Part shown: positions 2,763 to 46,136 of the stretch, piece by piece
Numbering within the stretch: position 1 is the stretch's first letter
Layout: each line of letters starts with the position of its first letter
Sequence record: OQ873415.1
Length of the DNA: 64,000 nucleotides
DNA from: Escherichia phage PECP20
Reading direction: 5' to 3' (one strand)
Program-made: the position numbers and the translations under genes
The notes under the pieces: model-generated
What the model was told of the DNA's origin: nothing
What the model saw: the letters and a program-made list of their open reading frames with translations, nothing else
The model's database searches: none

Positions 2763-3074
2763 TTATTTCCTCAGATTTTTCTTAACAACCTTCCAATCAG
2801 CTTTGAACATTTCAACGTCAGAGTGGCAAATCCAGAATCCTGCACTTTCACCATCTTCATAGAGTGGACATCCATCACATTCTTCGTTCCAACCCATTTC
2901 ACGTAAAGCTTCTTCAGCTTGTTCAAGGAGTTCAGCGTCTTTACCGACGATGTTGAAGTACCATTTACCTCTAACTTCAGAATCTTTGATGCTCTGACGT
3001 TGCAATCTCATTTTATTCTCCTTCACTTTTGATTTGATAGGGCTACTATAACATAACCCTATCTGATTGTACAC
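2763..3074 (-). CDS. hypothetical protein (frd.1/frd.2-like position)
   Basis: 103-aa ORF tightly packed between frd and next ORF; contains CDGC/ICH Cys-His pairs; no assignable function. Confidence 0.5.
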   Translation of the reverse strand: MYNQIGLCYSSPIKSKVKENKMRLQRQSIKDSEVRGKWYFNIVGKDAELLEQAEEALREMGWNEECDGCPLYEDGESAGFWICHSDVEMFKADWKVVKKNLRK

Positions 3075-3466: not shown

Positions 3467-3495
3467 TTTGATTTCCTCATGTTGTTGATAGGTCT

Positions 3496-3524
3496 ATACT
3501 AACACATCCATGGAAGAAGTAAAC
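3496..3524 (-). promoter_or_regulatory. Early promoter upstream of ORF 3074-3466
   Basis: Minus strand GTTTAC ...17 nt... TAGTAT; same gataggtctata start-region motif. Confidence 0.45.
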
Positions 3525-4598: not shown

Positions 4599-5252
4599 TT
4601 AATACTTACATGATTTGATTGTTTCTATGAACAATTTCTTAGCAGCATTTCCATCGATTTGAAGTATTTTTCGATATGCCTTTAATTTGGTAGAATAATT
4701 TTGCCAGACTAAATTGTCGGTGAGTTCGTCGTGCTTATCTATAATATTCAAGAATGAATCCAACAACAAGAAGGTTTCAAATGAAATTATATTGCTTTGT
4801 AGCAATTTAAATATGTAGCTCGACTGAACTTTATTATTATAATCAAATATCTCTTGAAGCGCACTAACTTCCACTTTCTTACTGAAATAGTAGATGTTAC
4901 GTACATCTTCAGCAAACGTCTCCTTGGCTTGTTTGAGACGTCCAATATATTCCCTATAGAAAACTAATGCATCAGCGTCTGATATCTCACCAATCCACGC
5001 ATCTTGGTTAGCAACTAAGTTACTGATGAATATCAAGGTGAGTTCCTTTAACTTATATTTCTCTGCTAGTTTCTCAAAGAAATATTTATCTCGGCGTTTT
5101 TGATACGCATTATCCGAAACACGCATGCACCAGTTATATTTGATTACGTCATACCGACCATTAAAATGTTGTTTGCACATCAAGTATAGTTTGTATACCG
5201 ATTTTCCGTTAATATAACGTTCTCCGTCAGGAGGCATGCGTATTTTAATCAT
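4599..5252 (-). CDS. 59: Helicase loader gp59
   Basis: 217 aa, identical length to T4 gp59; position between 32 and 33. Confidence 0.85.
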   Translation of the reverse strand: MIKIRMPPDGERYINGKSVYKLYLMCKQHFNGRYDVIKYNWCMRVSDNAYQKRRDKYFFEKLAEKYKLKELTLIFISNLVANQDAWIGEISDADALVFYREYIGRLKQAKETFAEDVRNIYYFSKKVEVSALQEIFDYNNKVQSSYIFKLLQSNIISFETFLLLDSFLNIIDKHDELTDNLVWQNYSTKLKAYRKILQIDGNAAKKLFIETIKSCKY

Positions 5253-5587
5253 AATAAGAAATCTAACGTATTAGTTTTTTCGCCACGAGCAACTGATGGG
5301 CGAAGCATGTTTTCGTCAATTGCTTCGCTTGTAATTTTTTCAACAATTCCTGTAGGAATAAATTTAGCAAATTGTGTTTCTGGAATAGAATTTTCTTCCA
5401 AGAAAGCAGTTGTTGCTTCTAAATAAGACATACCAAATTGTTCAACCATGGATTCGATAATGAATCCGTTTTCTTGGCGGTCAAGCAATTTAGCGATATC
5501 ATCTTTATCGTGTTTTACTGCTAATTCTTGTTCAGATAAACCGGTCTCATCAACCGGTTTAATATCACTTAGTGAAAACTGTGTCAT
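5249..5587 (-). CDS. 33: Late transcription co-activator gp33
   Basis: 112 aa (T4 gp33 is 112 aa); acidic; ATGA overlap with gene 59. Confidence 0.8.
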   Translation of the reverse strand: MTQFSLSDIKPVDETGLSEQELAVKHDKDDIAKLLDRQENGFIIESMVEQFGMSYLEATTAFLEENSIPETQFAKFIPTGIVEKITSEAIDENMLRPSVARGEKTNTLDFLL

Positions 5588-6759: not shown

Positions 6760-6837
6760 ATGAACCTCTTGTTCAGTTAGTCAACTTGGACTATAGTAAC
6801 ATACTAGTTCGAAAGCGTAAATAGTCTTTTACTCGTT

Positions 6838-12570: not shown

Positions 12571-15500
12571 ATGGCTACTTTAAAACAAATACAATTTAAA
12601 AGAAGCAAAACTGCAGGAGCACGTCCTGCCGCTTCAGTATTAGCCGAAGGTGAATTGGCTATAAACTTAAAAGACCGTGTACTTTTTACTAAAGATGACC
12701 AAGGAAATATTATTGATCTAGGTTTTGCTAAAGGTGGTAGTATTGACGGGAATGTTATTCATACTGGCAATTACAACCAAACTGGTGATTATACTTTAAA
12801 TGGCGTCTTCACACAGACGGGTAATTTTAATTTAACTGGTATTGCTCGAGTAACTCGCGATATTATTGCCGCCGGGCAGATTATGACTGAAGGCGGTGAA
12901 CTTATTACAAAAAGTTCAGGCACAGCACATGTTCGTTTTTTCGATAACAATAGTCGCGAACGCGGAATCATTTATGCCCCGGCTAATGATGGTTTAACTA
13001 CACAAGTACTTAATATCAGGGTTCAAGACTATGCCGCTGGTAGCGAAAGCACTTATGCATTTTCAGGCAGTGGACTATTTACTTCACCTGAAGTATCAGC
13101 ATGGAAATCTATTTCGTCTCCACAAATTCTAACCAACAAAGTCATTACTAATAATAAATCTACGGGTGATTATGACATCTATTCGATGGCAGACAATGTT
13201 CCATTGTCTGAAAGCACTACTGCTATTAATCATCTTCGTGTCATGCGTAATGCCGTTGGTTCTGGTATTTTCCATGAAGTTAAAGATAATGATGGAATAA
13301 CTTGGTATAGTGGAGATGGATTAGATGCTTATCTTTGGTCATTTACCTGGAGCGGCGGAATTAAATCAAGTCACTCAATTTCTATCGGTTTAACACCAGG
13401 TAATAAAGATTATTCAATATTAGGACCATCTAGCATTGCTTTAGGAGATAATGATACTGGATTTAAATGGCATCAAGACGGATATTATTTCAGCGTTAAT
13501 AATGGAACAAAAACGTTTTTATTTAATCCTAGCGAAACAACTAGCCTAAGAAAATTTGTAGCTGGATATTCTACTAATGGAACCGATTTAACTACTCCTC
13601 CAACTGAAAACTATGCTCTTGCTACTGTTGTGACATATCACGATAATAACGCGTTTGGAGATGGTCAGACTCTTTTGGGATATTATCAAGGCGGTAACTA
13701 TCATCATTATTTCCGCGGCAAGGGTACTACAAACATTAATACTCACGGCGGTTTGTTAGTTACTCCTGGTAATATTGACGTTATTGGCGGTTCTGTAAAT
13801 ATAGATGGTAGAAATAATTCTTCTACACTAATGTTTAGAGGCAACACAACAGGATACAGCTCGGTTGATAATATGGATATTAAAGTTTGGGGTAATACGT
13901 TTGTTGATCCAAGCGGAGGTATCCGTAAAAACATTATGGAAATTTCTGATGCAACTAGCTGGATGAGCTATATTCAAAGACTTACTACTGGCGAAGTAGA
14001 AATGAACGTTAATGGTTCATTTGAATCATCTGGTGTTACTGCTGGAGATAGAGGAGTTCACACAACAGGTGAAATTTCATCTGGAGCAATGAATGCACTT
14101 CGCATTTGGAATGCAGATTATGGAGCCATTTTTAGACGTTCAGAAGGTAGTCTTCATATTATTCCAACTGCTTACGGTGAAGGCAAAAATGGTGATATCG
14201 GTCCACTTCGCCCGTTTAGTATGGCTTTAGATACCGGTAAAGTTACTATTCCAGATTTACAATCAAGTTACAATACGTTCGCAGCGAACGGCTATATTAA
14301 ATTTGTTGGTCATGGCGCTGGCGCAGGTGGATATGATATTCAATATGCCCAAGCGGCTCCTATTTTCCAGGAAATTGATGATGATGCTGTAAGCAAATAT
14401 TATCCTATTGTTAAACAGAAGTTTTTAAATGGTAAAGCCGTTTGGTCTTTAGGTACTGAAATTAATTCGGGTACATTCGTTATTCATCATCTGAAAGAAG
14501 ATGGATCACAAGGCCATACGTCTCGTTTTAATCAAGACGGTACTGTTAACTTCCCAGATAACGTTTCTGTTGGCGGCGGTGAAGCTACTATTGCTCGCAA
14601 TGGTAATATCTGGTCTGATATCTGGAAAACGTTTACTTCTGCCGGTGATACTACAAATATTCGCGATGCTATTGCGACTCGTGTTTCGAAAGAAGGCGAC
14701 ACGATGACCGGCACTCTTTGGATTAATAAAGATGCCGCTGGAATAGTTCTTAATCCTCCTTTGACCAGTGATTCATCATTTATTCGTTCTGATACGGCCG
14801 GGGCCAATAATTGGTATATTGGTAAAGGCGGTGCCGACAATGGTCTAGGTTTTTACAGTTATGTTACACAAGGCGGTGTATATATAACAAATAACGGAGA
14901 AATATCACTTTCTCCTCAAGGCCAAGGAACATTTAATTTTAATAGAGACCGCCTCCATATAAACGGTACACAATGGGCCGCACACCAGGGCGGTGGTTGG
15001 GGAAATCAATGGAATCAAGAAGCACCGGTATTTGTAGATTTTGGTAATGTTGGTAATGATAGTTATTATCCTATTATTAAAGGAAAATCCGGTATTACTA
15101 ATGAAGGATACATATCTGGTGTAGATTTTGGTATGCGACGCATTACTAATACATGGGCACAAGGTATTATTCGTGTAGGTAATCAGGAAAACGGTTACGA
15201 CCCACAAGCTGTATATGAATTCCATCATAACGGTACTTTTTATGCTCCAAGCTTACTTAAGAGCAGTAGAGTATCAGCTGGTGGTGGTGACCCTGCATGG
15301 GGCGGGCCGTGTATTGTACTTGGAGATAACGATACCGGTTTGCTTTGGGAAAACGATGGTATTTTCAACGCATATGCAAACGGCCAAGGTGTGTTTAGTT
15401 TTAGACCTGGTTTAGCTCAGACATTCGGTGATGTTAACTTCCACTGTAATGCAGGTATGTATGTTCGTGATAACATTGATGTTAATGACGTTTATATTCG

Positions 15501-17610: not shown

Positions 17611-17656
17611 AACGTTTTATTCATTCCACTTAATTGTTAGGAGTATAGTACCATTA

Positions 17657-17818
17657 TCAGTGTTGATTGTAAACGGCTTTTTCTACACTTTTAACGTAAT
17701 CAGTGTAGTCTTCCTGTTCGTACGAGTGTAAGGCCAAGAACGTGGCTAATAGTTCATTATAGACTAAAGCCTCACGCTCACGTTCTGCCTCTACTACGTT
17801 CTGAAGATTATGGCTCAT
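17657..17818 (-). CDS. hypothetical small acidic protein
   Basis: ORF track 17657..17872 trimmed to internal ATG abutting upstream stop; overlaps asiA early promoter region. Confidence 0.3.
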   Translation of the reverse strand: MSHNLQNVVEAEREREALVYNELLATFLALHSYEQEDYTDYVKSVEKAVYNQH

Positions 17819-19471: not shown

Positions 19472-20104
19472 TCACAGTACGTTAGTTACAAGGGTAATGA
19501 TTTCTTTGGACACATTAGGGAAGTCAATGTAAGTATATTTACCACCGATTTTAATCTTAACATCATTTTCAAGAGAAGTAAACAGCTTTGATTCAGTTTC
19601 TGACATGTTGTATGCAAAGATTCTAAGAGCGCCATCTCGTCGAATTTCAATTTGGCGAATGCCTAGAACTCGTTTAGCGAATCGAACTTCTAAGTTACTA
19701 CGGTTTTCACCAATTTCTTTAACTTCAACTTTATCTTTAATATTTTCAAAAACAAAGTTCGCTAGTTCATGCATTTCAGGAGTAACTCCACGTGCTTTTC
19801 TGGTGTTACGTTTCTGGAGAAGTTCTGGAGCATTTTCTTGAGCAAATAGGTCTGCAGCTTTTTGGATAATATCCATTGCTTCGCCGGTTGCCACAAGTCC
19901 ATCACCGGATTTTTCGACTAAACCTTTTTTAATCAATACACCAATGTTAGAGTTAACAACCGATGCATTGTATTCCGCTTTCAGAGCTTCACGGACATTG
20001 GCAGCAGTGGTGAAGTTGTTCTTAATGATATAAACCATTATTGCAGCAGTTTTTTCATTCAGAGCGTTTTCAGAAGCTTTGATGATGTAAGTAACTTTAG
20101 ACAT
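19472..20104 (-). CDS. motA: Middle-transcription activator MotA
   Basis: 210 aa (T4 MotA 211 aa); N-terminus MSKVTYIIKAS...; early promoter at 20141-20169. Confidence 0.85.
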   Translation of the reverse strand: MSKVTYIIKASENALNEKTAAIMVYIIKNNFTTAANVREALKAEYNASVVNSNIGVLIKKGLVEKSGDGLVATGEAMDIIQKAADLFAQENAPELLQKRNTRKARGVTPEMHELANFVFENIKDKVEVKEIGENRSNLEVRFAKRVLGIRQIEIRRDGALRIFAYNMSETESKLFTSLENDVKIKIGGKYTYIDFPNVSKEIITLVTNVL

Positions 20105-20140
20105 TTTATTTCTCCAAATTAGTATTTGTTTGATAGGTCT

Positions 20141-20169
20141 ATAATATCATGTTTGAAGCAAAAGTAAAC
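20141..20169 (-). promoter_or_regulatory. Early promoter upstream of motA: -35 GTTTAC, 17-nt spacer, -10 TATTAT
   Basis: Near-duplicate of the 20462-20490 promoter including flanking ttgataggtctataatatcatgtttgaagca. Confidence 0.55.
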
Positions 20170-20206
20170 TTTATTTTGGGCTCTTTTTCAAAAGCCCTGG
20201 TAAAAT

Positions 20207-20422
20207 TTACAAACTCATTTCTTTAATAAGGCTAATAAGTTTTGCCTTTTTAGAACGAAGCTTTTCTAAATGATGTCCATTTGAACCGCGAACCACTAAA
20301 GAATTGATTTCAACTTCTAAGAAATTTAATTCTTCAACAAGTGCTTTACGGAGAGCATTCATACCAGGTTTAACTTTACCGAAACGAGTAGTTGTGTTTT
20401 GGGTTAATTTCATTTTAGACAT
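20207..20422 (-). CDS. hypothetical small basic protein (motA.1 position)
   Basis: 71 aa, Lys/Arg-rich; own early promoter at 20462-20490. Confidence 0.45.
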   Translation of the reverse strand: MSKMKLTQNTTTRFGKVKPGMNALRKALVEELNFLEVEINSLVVRGSNGHHLEKLRSKKAKLISLIKEMSL

Positions 20423-20461
20423 TTTATTTCTCCAATTTGGTTGTTTTGTTTTGATAGGTCT

Positions 20462-20490
20462 ATAATATCATGTTTGAAGCACATGTAAAC
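20462..20490 (-). promoter_or_regulatory. Early (sigma70-type) promoter: -35 GTTTAC, 17-nt spacer, -10 TATTAT
   Basis: Minus strand GTTTACatgtgcttcaaacatgaTATTAT; upstream of ORF 20207-20422. Confidence 0.55.
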
Positions 20491-22725: not shown

Positions 22726-22801
22726 GCTAATTTCCTCAATTGATTAATGTTTTTGTAATCCATGAGAGCATTATACTCTGCTCTCAAGAGTTTGTACAAT
22801 T

Positions 22802-23017: not shown

Positions 23018-23252
23018 GTTTAAGTAGGACTACTATACCATAATCCTACTGTGTTGTAAACAATTAAATTACATTAAAATATGTTAAAGCCAACCATGTT
23101 CCAGTGAACGAACATGCAATGTAAAAACCGTATCACAAAATGTTCTTAGTACAATAAGAAGTGCATTTTTCATAAGTACCTCAACACAATTGAAAATATT
23201 ATACAAATCATTGGGATACTAAGCAACCATATTCCTATCCACATTTTAGAGC

Positions 23253-23516: not shown

Positions 23517-23584
23517 GATGTTATCCTCTTTTAGATAGGACTACTGTATCATAGTCCTACTTAGTTGTAAACACTTTTATGAAA

Positions 23585-24385: not shown

Positions 24386-24401
24386 GGGGACCGAAGTCCC
24401 C
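24386..24401 (-). terminator. Rho-independent terminator after rIIB
   Basis: Minus strand GGGGAC-UUCG-GUCCCC followed by UUUUUUC. Confidence 0.65.
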
Positions 24402-31924: not shown

Positions 31925-32178
31925 TAAGTTGTACCGTTTTCAGTGATTTCACGGAAGATACCATAGATAGGCATTTCATCACCGAGTTTTTCGTAAACGT
32001 AAACCACTTCAGTGTAGCATAAAAATTCAGTCCAGTTTTTCTGTACAACAACTAAATCAGGATTAAACAGAACATCTTCAAACTCATCGATGTTTGAATC
32101 AGTAGTTACGTTTTTAATGATTTGACGTTTCATAATATTCTCCTCTTGTTTTGATAGGTCTATAGTATCATAGACCAT
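31906..32178 (-). CDS. hypothetical protein
   Basis: 90-aa ORF with early promoter at 32161-32190. Confidence 0.45.
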
Positions 32179-32190
32179 AGTTGTTGTACA

Positions 32191-32715
32191 TCATTTTAGC
32201 AAAATAAAATCAACTTGTTCTGCCAATGAACGTCTAAACATTAATTGACAACTTCCGAGGATGAAATCAGGTGCTTCATAGACCGCGATGTAGTATCCTT
32301 TAGCTTTCAAGAGTTCAACATCCACCTGGTCATCAAACCATGCATAAACCGCGTCAACGCTTTCAAATCCAAAATAGAACCCTTGAGCCCAATCTTCACT
32401 CAATTCAAATGTGTACTCAATTCTATGGTATCTTAAGATATTTTGTTCAAGAAGTTTGTCTTCATTTACTGTAGGACGATTAGGGACATTATAGTTGTCG
32501 CCGTGATGGTAGAAGTTACCTGAGATTATTCCATGTTTATCAAGGAACTCCCATGTTTCTTCAGAGTTGTCAGTGCCAGACCAACCGTAAGGTGAGCGTG
32601 GTTCTTTATTCCAAGAGGTTTCCCAAATTCTGACGGCTTTACCGTCTTCGATAGCAATTCCTGGTAATGATTCACGTTGAGTACAAAAACTACGTTCTAC
32701 GCGGTAAACTAACAT
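32191..32715 (-). CDS. hypothetical protein
   Basis: 174-aa ORF, Trp-rich. Confidence 0.5.
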   Translation of the reverse strand: MLVYRVERSFCTQRESLPGIAIEDGKAVRIWETSWNKEPRSPYGWSGTDNSEETWEFLDKHGIISGNFYHHGDNYNVPNRPTVNEDKLLEQNILRYHRIEYTFELSEDWAQGFYFGFESVDAVYAWFDDQVDVELLKAKGYYIAVYEAPDFILGSCQLMFRRSLAEQVDFILLK

Positions 32716-32774
32716 ATTATTCTCCTCTGGTTAATATGGTTATAATATCAAAACCAGAGGAGAAGTAAACAACT

Positions 32775-33689: not shown

Positions 33690-33750
33690 AATTTTCTCTC
33701 TTTGTTTAAGTTGAATTCATTATACTCCATCCGTCCTTGGATGTACAACA

Positions 33751-34245: not shown

Positions 34246-34276
34246 AATGTTTTTCCTGTTTGGTTAAGATAGAAAG

Positions 34277-34306
34277 ATTATACTCCAACCATCCTTGGTT
34301 GTAAAC
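34277..34306 (-). promoter_or_regulatory. Early promoter upstream of ORF 33751-34245
   Basis: Minus strand GTTTAC ... GTATAAT (plus text attatact ... gtaaac). Confidence 0.45.
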
Positions 34307-37369: not shown

Positions 37370-37426
37370 AATATTTTCCTCTGTCTTACGGACGTTAAGG
37401 TCATTTAGCTGATAAGCTTATAATAT

Positions 37427-37448
37427 CATGCCCTCAGGTAGTGTACAC
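37427..37448 (-). promoter_or_regulatory. Early promoter-like element upstream of srd-like gene
   Basis: Plus text cttataatatcatg...gtgtacac; same family as other early promoters. Confidence 0.4.
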
Positions 37449-38131: not shown

Positions 38132-38188
38132 TTAGGTTTCTCCTGTGGTTGATAAAGGTATAGTATCATCATCGGAAGAGTTTGTACA

Positions 38189-38770
38189 CTAAAAATTCAA
38201 CATTTTCAAATGAATGATTTTGTATAACCGAGATAAAGGGTCATATTCTAAGTCTTCAATTTCTACAATCTCAAATCTAGAGATACCTGAGACCATGTAT
38301 TCTTGTTCAGATTCAATCATATCTAGGACGTCAACACGTTTTTCTTCCATAACATGCTTAGGGTTCTTTCCGGCGAGTACAATGTTAACCATGTTTTGGT
38401 AGTAATCGAAAATGAACGGAGCATTCCTGAGACTAAGAATAGTGTACGTTTGATATTCCCAACTCCCAGAGAACTGTCTGGCCGTACCAAAGTCTGTTGT
38501 AAACGATGTTACTCGTCCAGGAGACCAATGGCATCCTACAGATAACAATGAAAGATGTTCTACTTCTTCTGGAGTTACACCACGGTAGAGTTCTACTGGT
38601 ACTGTAGAAGTCATATGCTTACGAACAAGACGGTCTAATTCATAGTGGAAATCTGGGTCTTCCTTATAATCAGTGCAAGCCCAGAGAATGTTTTGTTCTT
38701 GTTTAGTGAATTTATCATCAATTAGTGCTGCGAGATATTCGCGTTCTTGAAGTTCAGATTGACATGTCAT
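38189..38770 (-). CDS. modA: ADP-ribosyltransferase ModA
   Basis: 193 aa; LYRGV ... TSFTT ... EQEYMV motifs; paralogous to modB. Confidence 0.6.
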   Translation of the reverse strand: MTCQSELQEREYLAALIDDKFTKQEQNILWACTDYKEDPDFHYELDRLVRKHMTSTVPVELYRGVTPEEVEHLSLLSVGCHWSPGRVTSFTTDFGTARQFSGSWEYQTYTILSLRNAPFIFDYYQNMVNIVLAGKNPKHVMEEKRVDVLDMIESEQEYMVSGISRFEIVEIEDLEYDPLSRLYKIIHLKMLNF

Positions 38771-38986
38771 GATAGACCTCCATTTAAAGATAAGCCTATC
38801 ATAACACGAGAGGAGGGAATGTAAACTACTTTTTAAGCTTTCCTACTAAAGGTCCATCAGGGCCAGGTTGTTCTAACATGAATAACGATGCTTTAAAAAG
38901 CAATGTTAACCCTTTCACCATTCGATACCATGTCTCAAAGTCTTTTTCCTTGATTTCTAGTAAGAATTTCTCTTTAAATTTCTCTT

Positions 38987-40240: not shown

Positions 40241-40314
40241 ATTGTTCTCCTCTTGAGTAAGTAAGAATATCTTAACATAGTTTTTAGTGGATGTAAACTC
40301 TAGAAACGAAAAAA

Positions 40315-40623: not shown

Positions 40624-41145
40624 TTAGTAACCATTATCCTGACGTTCAAAGTTGTGTTGGTTTTTCAAGTAGTAAAGTTTAAAGATTTCTTCAGCAGAAA
40701 GACCAAGACCTTGGAACATATTTAGAACGAAATGCAGAATATCAATCATTTCAAATTTAATTTCAAGCTGGTCTTCAGGAGACAGTTCATCGATACGACG
40801 ATTTCGATATTCAGCATGTTGTGCTTTCCATGGCTTCCATACACTGCTAGCGGCTTTTTCACCATTGCTCATACCACCAAGTGAAGTCAGCAGTTCACGG
40901 AATTCATCATCAATATAATCTTTCTGATTACGCAGCCAATCAACAACATCACCAGCAGTAGCCAATTCATCAGGATGTTTGTTATGTTCAGGCTTGTCAT
41001 TTGCCAGACGAACCTGTAAAGATTTCTGCATATCAAGCATTACCTGCAGTGGGTCTTTATCTTCGTGAATCAGAGCATTAAAATAAGCTTCTTCTGCTTT
41101 ATCAACACCAGAAATAAGTTGTGAACATTCATTAAAGTGCGCCAT
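40624..41145 (-). CDS. 56: dCTP/dUTP pyrophosphatase gp56 (MazG-like)
   Basis: ATG at 41145 with SD AAAGGAAAAATA upstream gives 173 aa (T4 gp56 171 aa); MazG-type E-rich motifs. Confidence 0.8.
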   Translation of the reverse strand: MAHFNECSQLISGVDKAEEAYFNALIHEDKDPLQVMLDMQKSLQVRLANDKPEHNKHPDELATAGDVVDWLRNQKDYIDDEFRELLTSLGGMSNGEKAASSVWKPWKAQHAEYRNRRIDELSPEDQLEIKFEMIDILHFVLNMFQGLGLSAEEIFKLYYLKNQHNFERQDNGY

Positions 41146-44121: not shown

Positions 44122-44150
44122 TTTAACTCCTTAGTTGATTTGATAGGACT

Positions 44151-44180
44151 ACTATACTATAGACCATCTATAATGTAAAC
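44151..44180 (-). promoter_or_regulatory. Early promoter upstream of sp
   Basis: Minus strand GTTTAC ... TATAGT with gataggactactata motif. Confidence 0.45.
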
Positions 44181-44433: not shown

Positions 44434-44494
44434 GTTAATTTCCTCTTGATTTGTTATGTTTATAATATCTCGTTTTAACTTTGGCGTAAACCAA

Positions 44495-44863: not shown

Positions 44864-44923
44864 TTCAATTTCCTCTGTAGTTGATAGAAAGATAGTAACA
44901 CAGTATGTGGTGCTTGTAAACAG

Positions 44924-45643: not shown

Positions 45644-45698
45644 TTTGTTCTCCAGTAGTTGATAGGTCTATAATAACACAACTACTGGAGAAGTAAAC

Positions 45699-46073: not shown

Positions 46074-46136
46074 AATGTTTTCCTCTTGGTTGGTGTAAGT
46101 TCATCATATCATGCCTAGAGGAAGATGTAAACCCCG

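Follow-up and report, generated by a model that had tools for sequence, protein, structure and literature searches.

PeSLs (promoter-early stem-loops) are composite elements that combine an AT-rich region with a sigma-70 early promoter, a stem-loop, and a Shine-Dalgarno (SD) sequence with an ATG; they are repeated before small open reading frames (ORFs) in plastic genomic regions and have been implicated in ORF shuffling (PMC2839356, PMC4122927). Excised mini-circles that arise when two flanking cassettes recombine count among their features. They are known from the phages RB49/phi1, T4/PST, and KVP40/nt-1 (Arbiol 2010, PMC2839356; Comeau 2014, PMC4122927), the stem being placed mostly between the -35 and -10 elements or across the -10 in RB49/phi1 and just upstream of the promoter in T4/PST. 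RB69 is mentioned nowhere in the former paper, and PeSLs of RB69-like phages are described in neither. Here, we analyze a 64,000-nucleotide stretch of Escherichia phage PECP20 (OQ873415.1), referred to below as the window, in which an earlier reading of the bare sequence (the original prediction) had flagged the interval 20139-20490, upstream of the gene motA, as part of a family of near-identical early promoters. We find 22 such sites, which are very probably sigma-70-dependent early promoters of an RB69-like T4-type phage arranged as repeated cassettes of the PeSL kind, and we describe two classes of stems that are embedded in a subset of them.

Two other groups of described elements offer a direct comparison. 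T4 early promoters comprise an UP element, a -35 element, a TGn, and a -10 element together with additional consensus regions (Hinton review, PMC2988021). With the T4 consensus as a guide, 58 early promoters were predicted in RB69 (Nolan et al. 2006, PMC1524935), with GTTTAC as the -35, A enriched at -40 to -44, and C favored from -3 to -1; embedded stems are not mentioned in that publication. The promoter family as such is already known, in the form of the T4 early promoters (Pe) and the RB69 predictions. The second group consists of the T4 genes e, soc, 49, and I-TevI, where SD-sequestering hairpins that enclose an internal late promoter have been shown experimentally (reviewed in PMC3014915).

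Predicted early promoters of the PECP20 window

The region around the flagged interval is 99.5% identical to Shigella phage Shf125875 and to other Mosigvirus genomes, and by sequence identity the source phage is a Mosigvirus, i.e., an RB69-like T4-type phage. The gene order of the window runs from td/frd through the tail fiber genes and the asiA-motA-ndd-rIIB-rIIA early region to the gene 41-43-45 replication block. According to the Shf125875 annotation, the flagged interval is the junction of gene 52, a small ORF, and motA, with motA occupying 19472-20104 on the minus strand (ATG at 20104) and the small ORF, of 71 amino acids (aa), 20207-20422. An Rfam scan of the whole window returned zero family matches.

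Sites are named by the coordinate of their first -35 base. All 16 sites listed in the original prediction were recovered on the minus strand with the claimed pattern and with coordinates within about 2 nt, and a relaxed scan extended the family to 22 minus-strand members in the window, the six added ones having their first -35 base at 3074, 6822, 32770, 37448, 40298, and 44491. The same scan found no family member on the plus strand of the window. The strict pattern GTTTAC-N17-TATNNT has six matches, five of them on the minus strand, versus 0.26 expected, and none of 100 shuffles reached six. With a two-block weight matrix, 17 of the 22 sites scored 21 to 41 bits when left out of the matrix in turn, and five weak sites (46132, 22799, 6822, 33748, and 40298) scored 5 to 15 bits; the maxima of random Markov sequence of the same composition averaged 11.8 and did not exceed 19.2. 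A scan of the window with a generic sigma-70 consensus showed no enrichment (65 matches versus 64.4 expected), which indicates that the signal belongs to a phage-specific consensus. Further, the heptamer CTATCAA occurs 24 times in the window versus 12.3 times expected, with the excess located at the family promoters (8 of the 24 occurrences).

When the 22 sites are aligned on the -10 element, their consensus reads as an A-rich tract, GTTTAC(A), a spacer of 17 to 18 nt ending in TG-n, TAnnAT, and then A-G-n-C-C-T-A-T-C-A-A; written out as ..aaaAa..GTTTAC...TG.TAnnAT, it holds about 0.9 bit of information in the A tract and 1.2 to 1.3 at the TG. Every site combines a GTTTAC-type -35 with a TAnnnT -10 at a distance of 17 to 18 nt. 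Without exception, the 22 sites have an A seven positions after the -10, even where the neighboring bases vary. As the usual distance from the -10 to the start is 7 nt, we infer that this A is the +1. The original prediction had described the motif following the -10 as a conserved transcribed leader. Its conservation is borne out, but with the start so assigned, most of the motif would lie upstream of it, AGNCCT forming a discriminator (-6 to -1) and only (A)TCAA belonging to the leader. Unmodified host RNA polymerase would bind the A-rich UP element, the -35 GTTTAC(A), the TGn of the extended -10, and the TAnnnT -10 and would start transcription at the invariant A 7 nt downstream of the -10, with TCAA among the first transcribed bases.

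All 22 sites are upstream of, and co-oriented with, an ortholog of a T4 early gene or a small early ORF, and in 21 of them an SD sequence and an ATG follow 25 to 40 nt after the -10. The downstream genes are frd.1, frd.2, rnh, asiA, motA, ndd, ndd.1, ORF270c, cef, motB.2, motB, motB.1, srd, modA, modB, mrh.2, sp, imm, imm.1, ORF040c, and ORF041c; the late tail fiber block and the replication block at 46-64 kb contain none of the 22 sites. Comparison with the published RB69 list revealed that 21 of the sites map one-to-one, in order and spacing, onto RB69 Pe entries, 13 of them at 6.8 to 21 kb and 8 close to the genome end. The spacings between paired sites are nearly the same in the window and in RB69 (3298 versus 3296 bp, 2495 versus 2496, 262 versus 261, and 511 versus 512). 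The promoters of the two phages have in common the UP A tract, GTTTAC, TGn, TAnnnT, the C-rich -3 to -1 region, the downstream genes, and the orientation; they differ in that the window has an additional, duplicated promoter in the motA region, which is its sole site beyond the RB69 list, and lacks the ORF245c context of RB69 Pe:146013. T4 has an ortholog of the motA promoter, and similar promoters precede denB and ndd.4 (GTTTAC...TACTAT...CTATCAAC), all three carrying TACTAT, six bases, and A-TCAAC. The RefSeq records of T4 and RB69 hold no promoter features giving mapped starts. The anatomy of the sites, their orientation and position before early-gene orthologs, and their match to the RB69 list all support the reading of the original prediction that this is an early-promoter family.

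The 22 candidate promoters are listed below; stem classes A and B are defined in the next section.

20451-20490, minus strand: promoter, distal motA-region copy, with -35 GTTTAC at 20490-20485, -10 TATTAT, and putative +1 A at 20455; 44.4 bits, 40.3 leave-one-out; predicted to drive the 71-aa cassette ORF; preceded by the gene 52 terminator, GGGAGCCGAAGCTCCC with a T run
20130-20169, minus strand: promoter, proximal copy directly upstream of motA; corresponds to RB69 Pe:162713
45659-45698, minus strand: promoter of the RB69ORF040c-like gene (ATG 45643); class A stem at 45648-45692, in which the spacer TTCTCCAGTAGTTG pairs with CAACTACTGGAGAA, the SD being inside the latter; duplex energy -22.9
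32731-32770, minus strand: promoter of motB.2 (ATG 32715); class A stem at 32720-32764, in which TTCTCCTCTGGTT pairs with the SD-containing AACCAGAGGAGAA; duplex energy -22.4
3034-3074, minus strand: promoter of frd.1; class B stem at 3036-3063 (GATAGGGTTAT / GTAGCCCTATC), duplex energy -16.9, with the -10 in the loop and 3' arm
23021-23061, minus strand: promoter of ndd.1; class B stem at 23023-23050 (AGTAGGATTAT / GTAGTCCTACT)
23532-23572, minus strand: promoter of the RB69ORF270c-like gene; class B stem at about 23535-23560, the example cited in the original prediction
22759-22799, minus strand: weaker promoter (TTGTAC ... TATAAT) of ndd; 5.3 leave-one-out; RB69 Pe:165022; class B-type stem at 22763-22786 (TGAGAGCA / TGCTCTCA), duplex energy -14.4
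46092-46132, minus strand: weak-scoring promoter after the gene 41 terminator, of the ORF041c-like gene; 6.5 leave-one-out; RB69 Pe:20971; 7-bp complementarity TTCCTCT/AGAGGAA extending to the SD, missing from the minimum free energy (MFE) fold
44881-44921, minus strand: promoter of imm.1; the homology to Shf125875 is interrupted within the promoter, at its CTATCAAC start motif
44451-44491, minus strand: promoter of imm; RB69 Pe:19331
44140-44180, minus strand: promoter of spackle (61.3); imperfect class B stem
40258-40298, minus strand: promoter of mrh.2; without embedded stem
38787-38826, minus strand: promoter of modB; spacer CCTCC complementary to the SD GGAGG (5 bp)
38149-38189, minus strand: promoter of modA
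37409-37448, minus strand: promoter of srd
34266-34306, minus strand: promoter of motB.1
33708-33748, minus strand: weaker promoter of motB; 12.6 leave-one-out; RB69 Pe:8387 (score 6.2)
32151-32191, minus strand: promoter of cef; short stem GGTCTAT/ATAGACC across the -10
17634-17674, minus strand: promoter of asiA; upstream neighbor divergent; without embedded stem
6782-6822, minus strand: weaker promoter of rnh; upstream neighbor divergent; without embedded stem
3485-3524, minus strand: promoter after the gene 32 terminator, of frd.2

Two classes of stems embedded in the promoters

A further claim of the original prediction was that inverted repeats span the -10 at several sites, and the example it cited is present at 23536-23559 (TAGGACTA...TAGTCCTA). 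We compared the duplex energy between the spacer of each promoter and its own downstream region with that obtained when the spacer was paired with the downstream regions of the other 21 promoters. The matched pairs had a mean of -9.98 kcal/mol versus -7.02 +/- 0.51 for the permuted pairs (0/20,000 permutations). The repeats are thus present above chance, and rather than being incidental they fall into two ordered, covarying classes. The excess in matched energy is driven by about 7 to 9 sites, among them 45698, 32770, 3074, 22799, 23061, 23572, and 46132.

As a comparison set, we scanned IMG/VR for GTTTAC-N17/18-TANNNT-AGNCCTATC, which yielded about 120 loci, or 995 kb of T4-type contigs, and with the weight matrix we found 250 unique family members in them. 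Stems of at least 9 pairs are present in 16.4% of these members versus 2.2% of mismatched pairs, and those of at least 11 pairs in 8% versus 0.3%. On the basis of position, two classes can be distinguished, with 25 (class A) and 27 (class B) unique stems of at least 8 pairs.

In class A, the first or second base after the -35 opens the 5' arm, which typically consists of (A/T)TCTCC and five variable bases (about -30 to -17); in the 3' arm, the complement of these five bases is followed by GGAGA, the SD sequence. The variable bases change together in the two arms (CAGTAG/CTACTG, CATTAG/CTAATG, CTGTAG/CTACAG, CTCTAG/CTAGAG, CTCATG/CATGAG, and CTCTGG/CCAGAG). In an alignment of 18 class A promoters, 92% of the cells are paired versus 38 to 57% with a slid partner, 5 of the 11 pairs have changed on both sides, and no shuffle reached the covariation score. 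Selection on the 5' arm alone gave a concordant picture: among 31 members with TCTCC at spacer positions 2-6, the next 5 nt are exactly complementary to the bases before GGAG in 15 and the next 4 nt in 20, versus a null of 0.2 to 1.1%, and five different 5-mers are involved. In the window, read-through RNAs covering 45698 and 32770 are predicted to fold with an MFE of -22.1 kcal/mol (z -4.1) and -22.7 kcal/mol (z -4.6), respectively, enclosing the SD within a helix of 13 to 14 bp; the putative +1 falls between the arms, and the RNAs begun there are predicted to be unstructured, at about -1 kcal/mol (-1.0 for 45698). The class A arrangement is also found in T4 itself, at the ndd.4 promoter (NC_000866, about 166750-166807, minus strand), where the spacer CTGTTCTTCC and the SD-region GGAGGAACAG form a 10-bp stem.

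In class B, the 5' arm is in the middle of the spacer (e.g., GATAGGnCT), the 3' arm is the start motif AGnCCTATC itself (-6 to +6), and the loop contains the -10. Between the spacer and the motif's variable base there is covariation (GGG/CCC, GGA/TCC, and GGT/ACC), and the flanking pairs covary as well (GATAGG/CCTATC, GGTAGG/CCTACC, and AGTAGG/CCTACT). When 31 class B promoters were aligned, 10 of the 11 pairs were found to change on both sides, none of 500 shuffles reached any of five measures, and slid controls were far below the real register. The predicted folds of class B stems in the window have z scores of -4.3 (3074), -3.0 (23061), and -2.4 (23572). A U run follows none of the 27 class B stems, with 0 to 3 T in the next 8 nt. 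In four of the IMG/VR loci (L004, L021, L040, and L107), both classes are nested in one long hairpin, TCCTTG-A-GGGCTAT ... ATAGCCC-TATCAACA-CAAGGA.

Probable folding of read-through RNA

About one-third of the family members carry a stem whose 5' arm is in the promoter spacer. This arm would therefore be absent from the RNA of that promoter, and only RNA arriving from an upstream promoter could fold the embedded stem. The distribution of stems relative to upstream terminators bears on this point. Among the IMG/VR-set family members with enough flank, a stem of at least 9 pairs is embedded in 2% of the 50 that have a terminator-like hairpin and T run within 90 nt upstream and in 20% of the 198 that lack an upstream terminator (Mann-Whitney p=3.6e-6, Fisher p=0.001); in the former group, the mean best stem is 5.38 versus a null mean of 5.49. 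The window shows a like trend, with no stem at 17674 and 6822, which follow divergent genes, or at 20490 and 40298, which follow terminators, and with each of the six strongest stems directly following a co-directional ORF. Terminator-like hairpins precede 3524, 20490, 46132, and also 40298, the last by eye only, and 20169 is among several sites with neither a convincing embedded stem nor a terminator.

The pattern of base changes points in the same direction. The arms conserve pairing rather than sequence, and variants coexist in one genome, which argues against a protein operator. At fixed register, the class B core has 28 G:U-type versus 10 A:C-type combinations, a count that is only suggestive because the sequences are related; such an excess of G:U over A:C is strand specific, as expected for sense-strand RNA. 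The same comparison inside the best local stems (4 versus 1) had too few internal mismatches to be decisive and was discarded. The mutual exclusion of stems and terminators, together with the absence of the 5' arm from the promoter's own transcript, points to a device acting on read-through RNA. Hence, the embedded stems most simply act on RNA read through from upstream and not on duplex DNA, and the hairpin probably silences the RNA that arrives from upstream.

For class A, this would mean that read-through RNA is untranslatable at the cistron in question, with the promoter's own transcript remaining open, and that the cistron is translated only from its own early promoter, i.e., during the immediate-early burst. 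The same hairpin may also shield long transcripts from cleavage by RegB at internal early GGAG sequences. GGAG in early SD regions is the cleavage target of RegB, whose strong sites are of the form GGAGRAYARAA and which RNA structure is reported to block; the SD region of 45698, GGAGAACAAAA (45648-45658), is an exact match to this strong consensus. The class B stems likewise appear to be selected and to act on read-through RNA, and their role is less certain than that of class A: they might attenuate upstream transcripts, stabilize the 3' end of the upstream message, or hinder ribosome access or standby binding.

The class A geometry is reminiscent of the hairpins of T4 e, soc, 49, and I-TevI. 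In both cases, the 5' arm of the inhibitory helix is upstream of an internal start, the helix includes the SD (at 45698 and 32770 in the window and in the 25 class A stems among the 250 members), and the start lies between the arms, so that long transcripts are masked and promoter-proximal ones are open, for class A by prediction. However, the internal promoter of the T4 genes is late and delays expression, whereas the early one of class A would confine translation to the immediate-early burst. Unlike the T4 hairpins, class A is predicted from sequence and recurs at many genes with covarying arms.

The likeness to PeSLs is that of a whole composite element. The window sites have the same order of an AT-rich upstream region, a sigma-70-like promoter, and a 3' SD and start codon; in a subset, a stable stem-loop is found inside the promoter or immediately before it; the elements are repeated before small early ORFs; and three ORF indels or replacements between close relatives are associated with them. 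In both systems, the stem is often between the -35 and -10 or across the -10, or a terminator is just upstream. The stem sequences differ, being TCTCCn5/n5GGAGA and GATAGGnCT/AGnCCTATC in the window versus a G-run/C-run in RB49. Moreover, the window stems have no U tails and half of them mask the SD, and the terminator role published for PeSLs fits them poorly.

This role is nevertheless the foremost alternative to the masking of read-through RNA, namely, that the embedded stems terminate or attenuate upstream transcripts, as Arbiol et al. proposed for PeSLs, and are not translational or RegB masks. One RB49 stem-loop cut reporter expression as much as the rrnB T1 terminator did (PMC2839356), embedded stems and upstream intrinsic terminators exclude each other as if they were doing the same job, and class B stems leave the SD untouched. 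We regard it as a possible but clearly less likely explanation, given that the missing U run of all 27 class B stems and, in class A, the loops of about 30 nt and the AACAAAAUG-type sequence that follows the stem depart from the form of an intrinsic terminator. Nor does termination account for the invariable use of the SD GGAG as the class A 3' arm.

Duplication in the motA region and exchange between cassettes

The two motA-region promoter copies are identical at 41 of the 43 positions from the -35 to +11 and identical again over TTGGAGAAATAAAATGTCTAAA, which takes in the SD, the ATG, and the first two codons. The near-identical copies noted in the original prediction are therefore present, but the repeat is about 80 nt long and not about 35 nt. 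The 71-aa ORF, which had been labeled motA.1, proved not to be an ortholog of T4 motA.1 and instead is a variably present cassette ORF. Its annotation is PhAPEC2_246-like in Shf125875 and orf253 in JS98, and it is found in 93 phage records, including those of Dhakavirus at about 74% identity. The cassette is as follows.

20105-20422, minus strand: motA cassette, 318-321 bp, comprising the 71-aa ORF, a small hairpin, and one promoter copy

The cassette and its ORF are absent from RB69 and mar005P1 and present in JS98, and only one promoter separates gene 52 from motA in RB69, mar005P1, and T4. As the junction is inside the repeat of about 80 nt, the cassette has no exact placement. In JS98, the ORF is flanked by two promoter copies that are identical to each other over 41 nt and that deviate at shared positions from the two Mosigvirus copies (CTTT versus CTTC and TACTAT versus TATTAT). 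That the JS98 copies are alike, yet both unlike those of Mosigvirus, indicates that the motA-region copies evolve in concert. We considered the single motA promoter of mar005P1 as a plain deletion product of a two-copy state and rejected this origin: it is closer to the proximal copy in its spacer and to the distal copy in its leader, the opposite of such a product. This mixture implies a history involving conversion or exchange.

Two more ORF-level differences from close relatives are bounded by the promoter/leader repeat, bringing the number to three. In RB69, ORF245c is inserted between the frd.2 promoter and frd.2, where it is flanked by ATCAACAA-TGAGGAAA-AAAATG leader/SD repeats, and it is absent from the window. 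The segment upstream of the imm.1 promoter is a replacement when compared with Shf125875, the two sequences becoming homologous again at CTATCAAC. Being long direct repeats of near-identical sequence, the cassettes probably serve as crossover points. Differences in segH, soc.1/.2, the gp37 segment, and the frd region lie away from promoters; hence, not all plasticity is cassette mediated.

Such exchange raises the question of whether the near-identity of the sites, start motif included, has a function of its own or is a by-product of recent duplication or gene conversion among mobile cassettes. The concerted evolution of the two motA-region copies in JS98 versus Mosigvirus and the indels and replacements bounded by repeats are what functionless homogenization would produce. 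We nevertheless consider it rather unlikely, since CTATCAAC with its A at a constant distance from the -10 is retained in T4, Dhakavirus, and Mosigvirus despite diverged spacers and leaders, since the +1 A remains invariant amid varying neighbors, and since the preference for C at -3 to -1 extends to three phage groups (Nolan et al.). Conservation of the start motif beyond the homogenized repeats makes it likely that initiation has been under selection as well.

Operators, shut-off, and other promoter classes

The inverted repeats could in principle act on duplex DNA as cruciforms or as palindromic operators, e.g., for an early shut-off factor. They straddle the -10 and the start site, the classic position of an operator, and the mechanism by which T4-type early promoters are shut off is described as unknown (PMC2988021). 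Yet, this interpretation is improbable: within one genome, the arms vary among promoters by compensatory pairs such as GGG/CCC, CAGTAG/CTACTG, and CTCATG/CATGAG; G:T is tolerated above A:C, which is unexpected for a cruciform or an operator; loops of 6 to 30 nt disfavor cruciform extrusion; and the absence of stems behind upstream terminators is not predicted by it. A related idea concerns the start motif rather than the stems. AGNCCT-A(+1)-TCAA(C) is outside the sigma-70 consensus, is found here only at early promoters, and has been kept from T4 through Dhakavirus to Mosigvirus. It is conceivable, at rather long odds, that the motif is the cis-target of early-promoter shut-off at about 3 min postinfection or of Alt-dependent stimulation, which would make it more than a favorable setting for initiation or an outcome of homogenization among cassettes.

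That the sites are MotA/AsiA-dependent middle or gp55-dependent late promoters is barely credible, since the Mot-box-like TGCTTCA in the spacer of both motA-region copies (TGCTTTA in JS98), the one feature that speaks for it, is rejected as a middle-promoter element on its spacing of only 7 nt from the -10 versus the published 11 to 13 (PMC1524935) and is missing from the other 20 sites, all sites carry a -35 GTTTAC 17 to 18 nt from the -10, the late motif TATAAATA occurs at no site, and the downstream genes are T4 early genes. The TGCTTCA copies are at 20154-20160 and 20475-20481 on the minus strand, and the spacer of the T4 motA promoter contains AAGCA, the inverse of TGCTT. A MotA box within the early promoter of motA itself could reflect autoregulation.

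Several points weigh against the reading of these sites as early-promoter cassettes with stems that act on read-through RNA. Promoter activity, the +1 position, and the function of every stem are themselves predictions. A convincing stem is present at only about 7 to 9 of the 22 window promoters, and both motA copies in the flagged interval are without one; class A stems at 46132 and 3524, complementary by eye, were not recovered in the MFE fold and were counted as weak. The class B stems end a median of 7.5 nt before the SD, leaving it unmasked, and have no U run. The pattern used to fetch the IMG/VR loci demands AGNCCTATC in at least one site per locus, and many of the sequences are orthologous, which makes the counts nonindependent and the p values optimistic. 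The alignments of 18 class A and 31 class B promoters consist of sequences chosen for having stems, and only the TCTCC test selected on the 5' arm and the terminator-versus-stem comparison are free of this bias. Finally, the location of indel boundaries at promoters could in part reflect the presence of a promoter at every gene boundary in these regions.

Other features of the window

Further differences from Shf125875 were observed elsewhere in the window. At 5249-5253, the homing endonuclease gene segH is absent, which Shf125875 has between gene 59 and gene 33 (about 680 bp). At 40625-40661, 36 bp stand in place of about 380 bp of Shf125875 that include soc.1 and soc.2, the junction being away from early promoters. 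In the frd region, 2179-2778 comprises 600 bp versus about 1,230 bp in Shf125875, which has an extra RB32ORF229c-like ORF. A segment of the distal long-tail-fiber gene (gp37) at 13148-13435 has no megablast match to Shf125875 and probably is a hypervariable region for host range. The GC-rich hairpin GGGGACTTCGGTCCCC downstream of rIIB (24386-24401) is perfectly paired, is accompanied by T runs on either strand, and looks like a bidirectional terminator.

Implications for T4-type phages

The literature that we examined, with the older T4 literature outside its scope, covers neither PeSL cassettes of RB69-like phages, nor the pairing that regularly joins the spacer to the SD or the start motif with compensatory variants, nor the mutual exclusion of stems and terminators. 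Searches for T4 start mapping by RNA-seq and for SD-masking hairpins at early promoters found nothing beyond the 2010 reviews. The covariation between spacer and SD and the stem-terminator exclusion may thus be new, with earlier notice possible in the older literature that our search did not span. We regard the added value as modest, lying in the covarying stems embedded in promoters and their apparent link to read-through RNA.

For this Mosigvirus window, the analysis supplies 22 early transcription units for annotation and explains the duplication in the motA region as a cassette insertion. More generally, the cassettes mark points at which accessory genes are swapped, which is useful both for comparative genomics and for phage engineering. 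The presence of the class A arrangement in T4 makes it testable there with existing tools. Together, the covariation between spacer and SD and the mutual exclusion of stems and terminators suggest that every small early gene of T4-type phages is routinely shielded against transcription arriving from upstream, by termination or by folding of the read-through RNA. If this is true, a cistron in folded read-through RNA would be neither translated nor cut by RegB, which would tie PeSL cassettes to posttranscriptional control and would yield a testable rule to explain why the synthesis of some early proteins is limited to the first minutes after infection.

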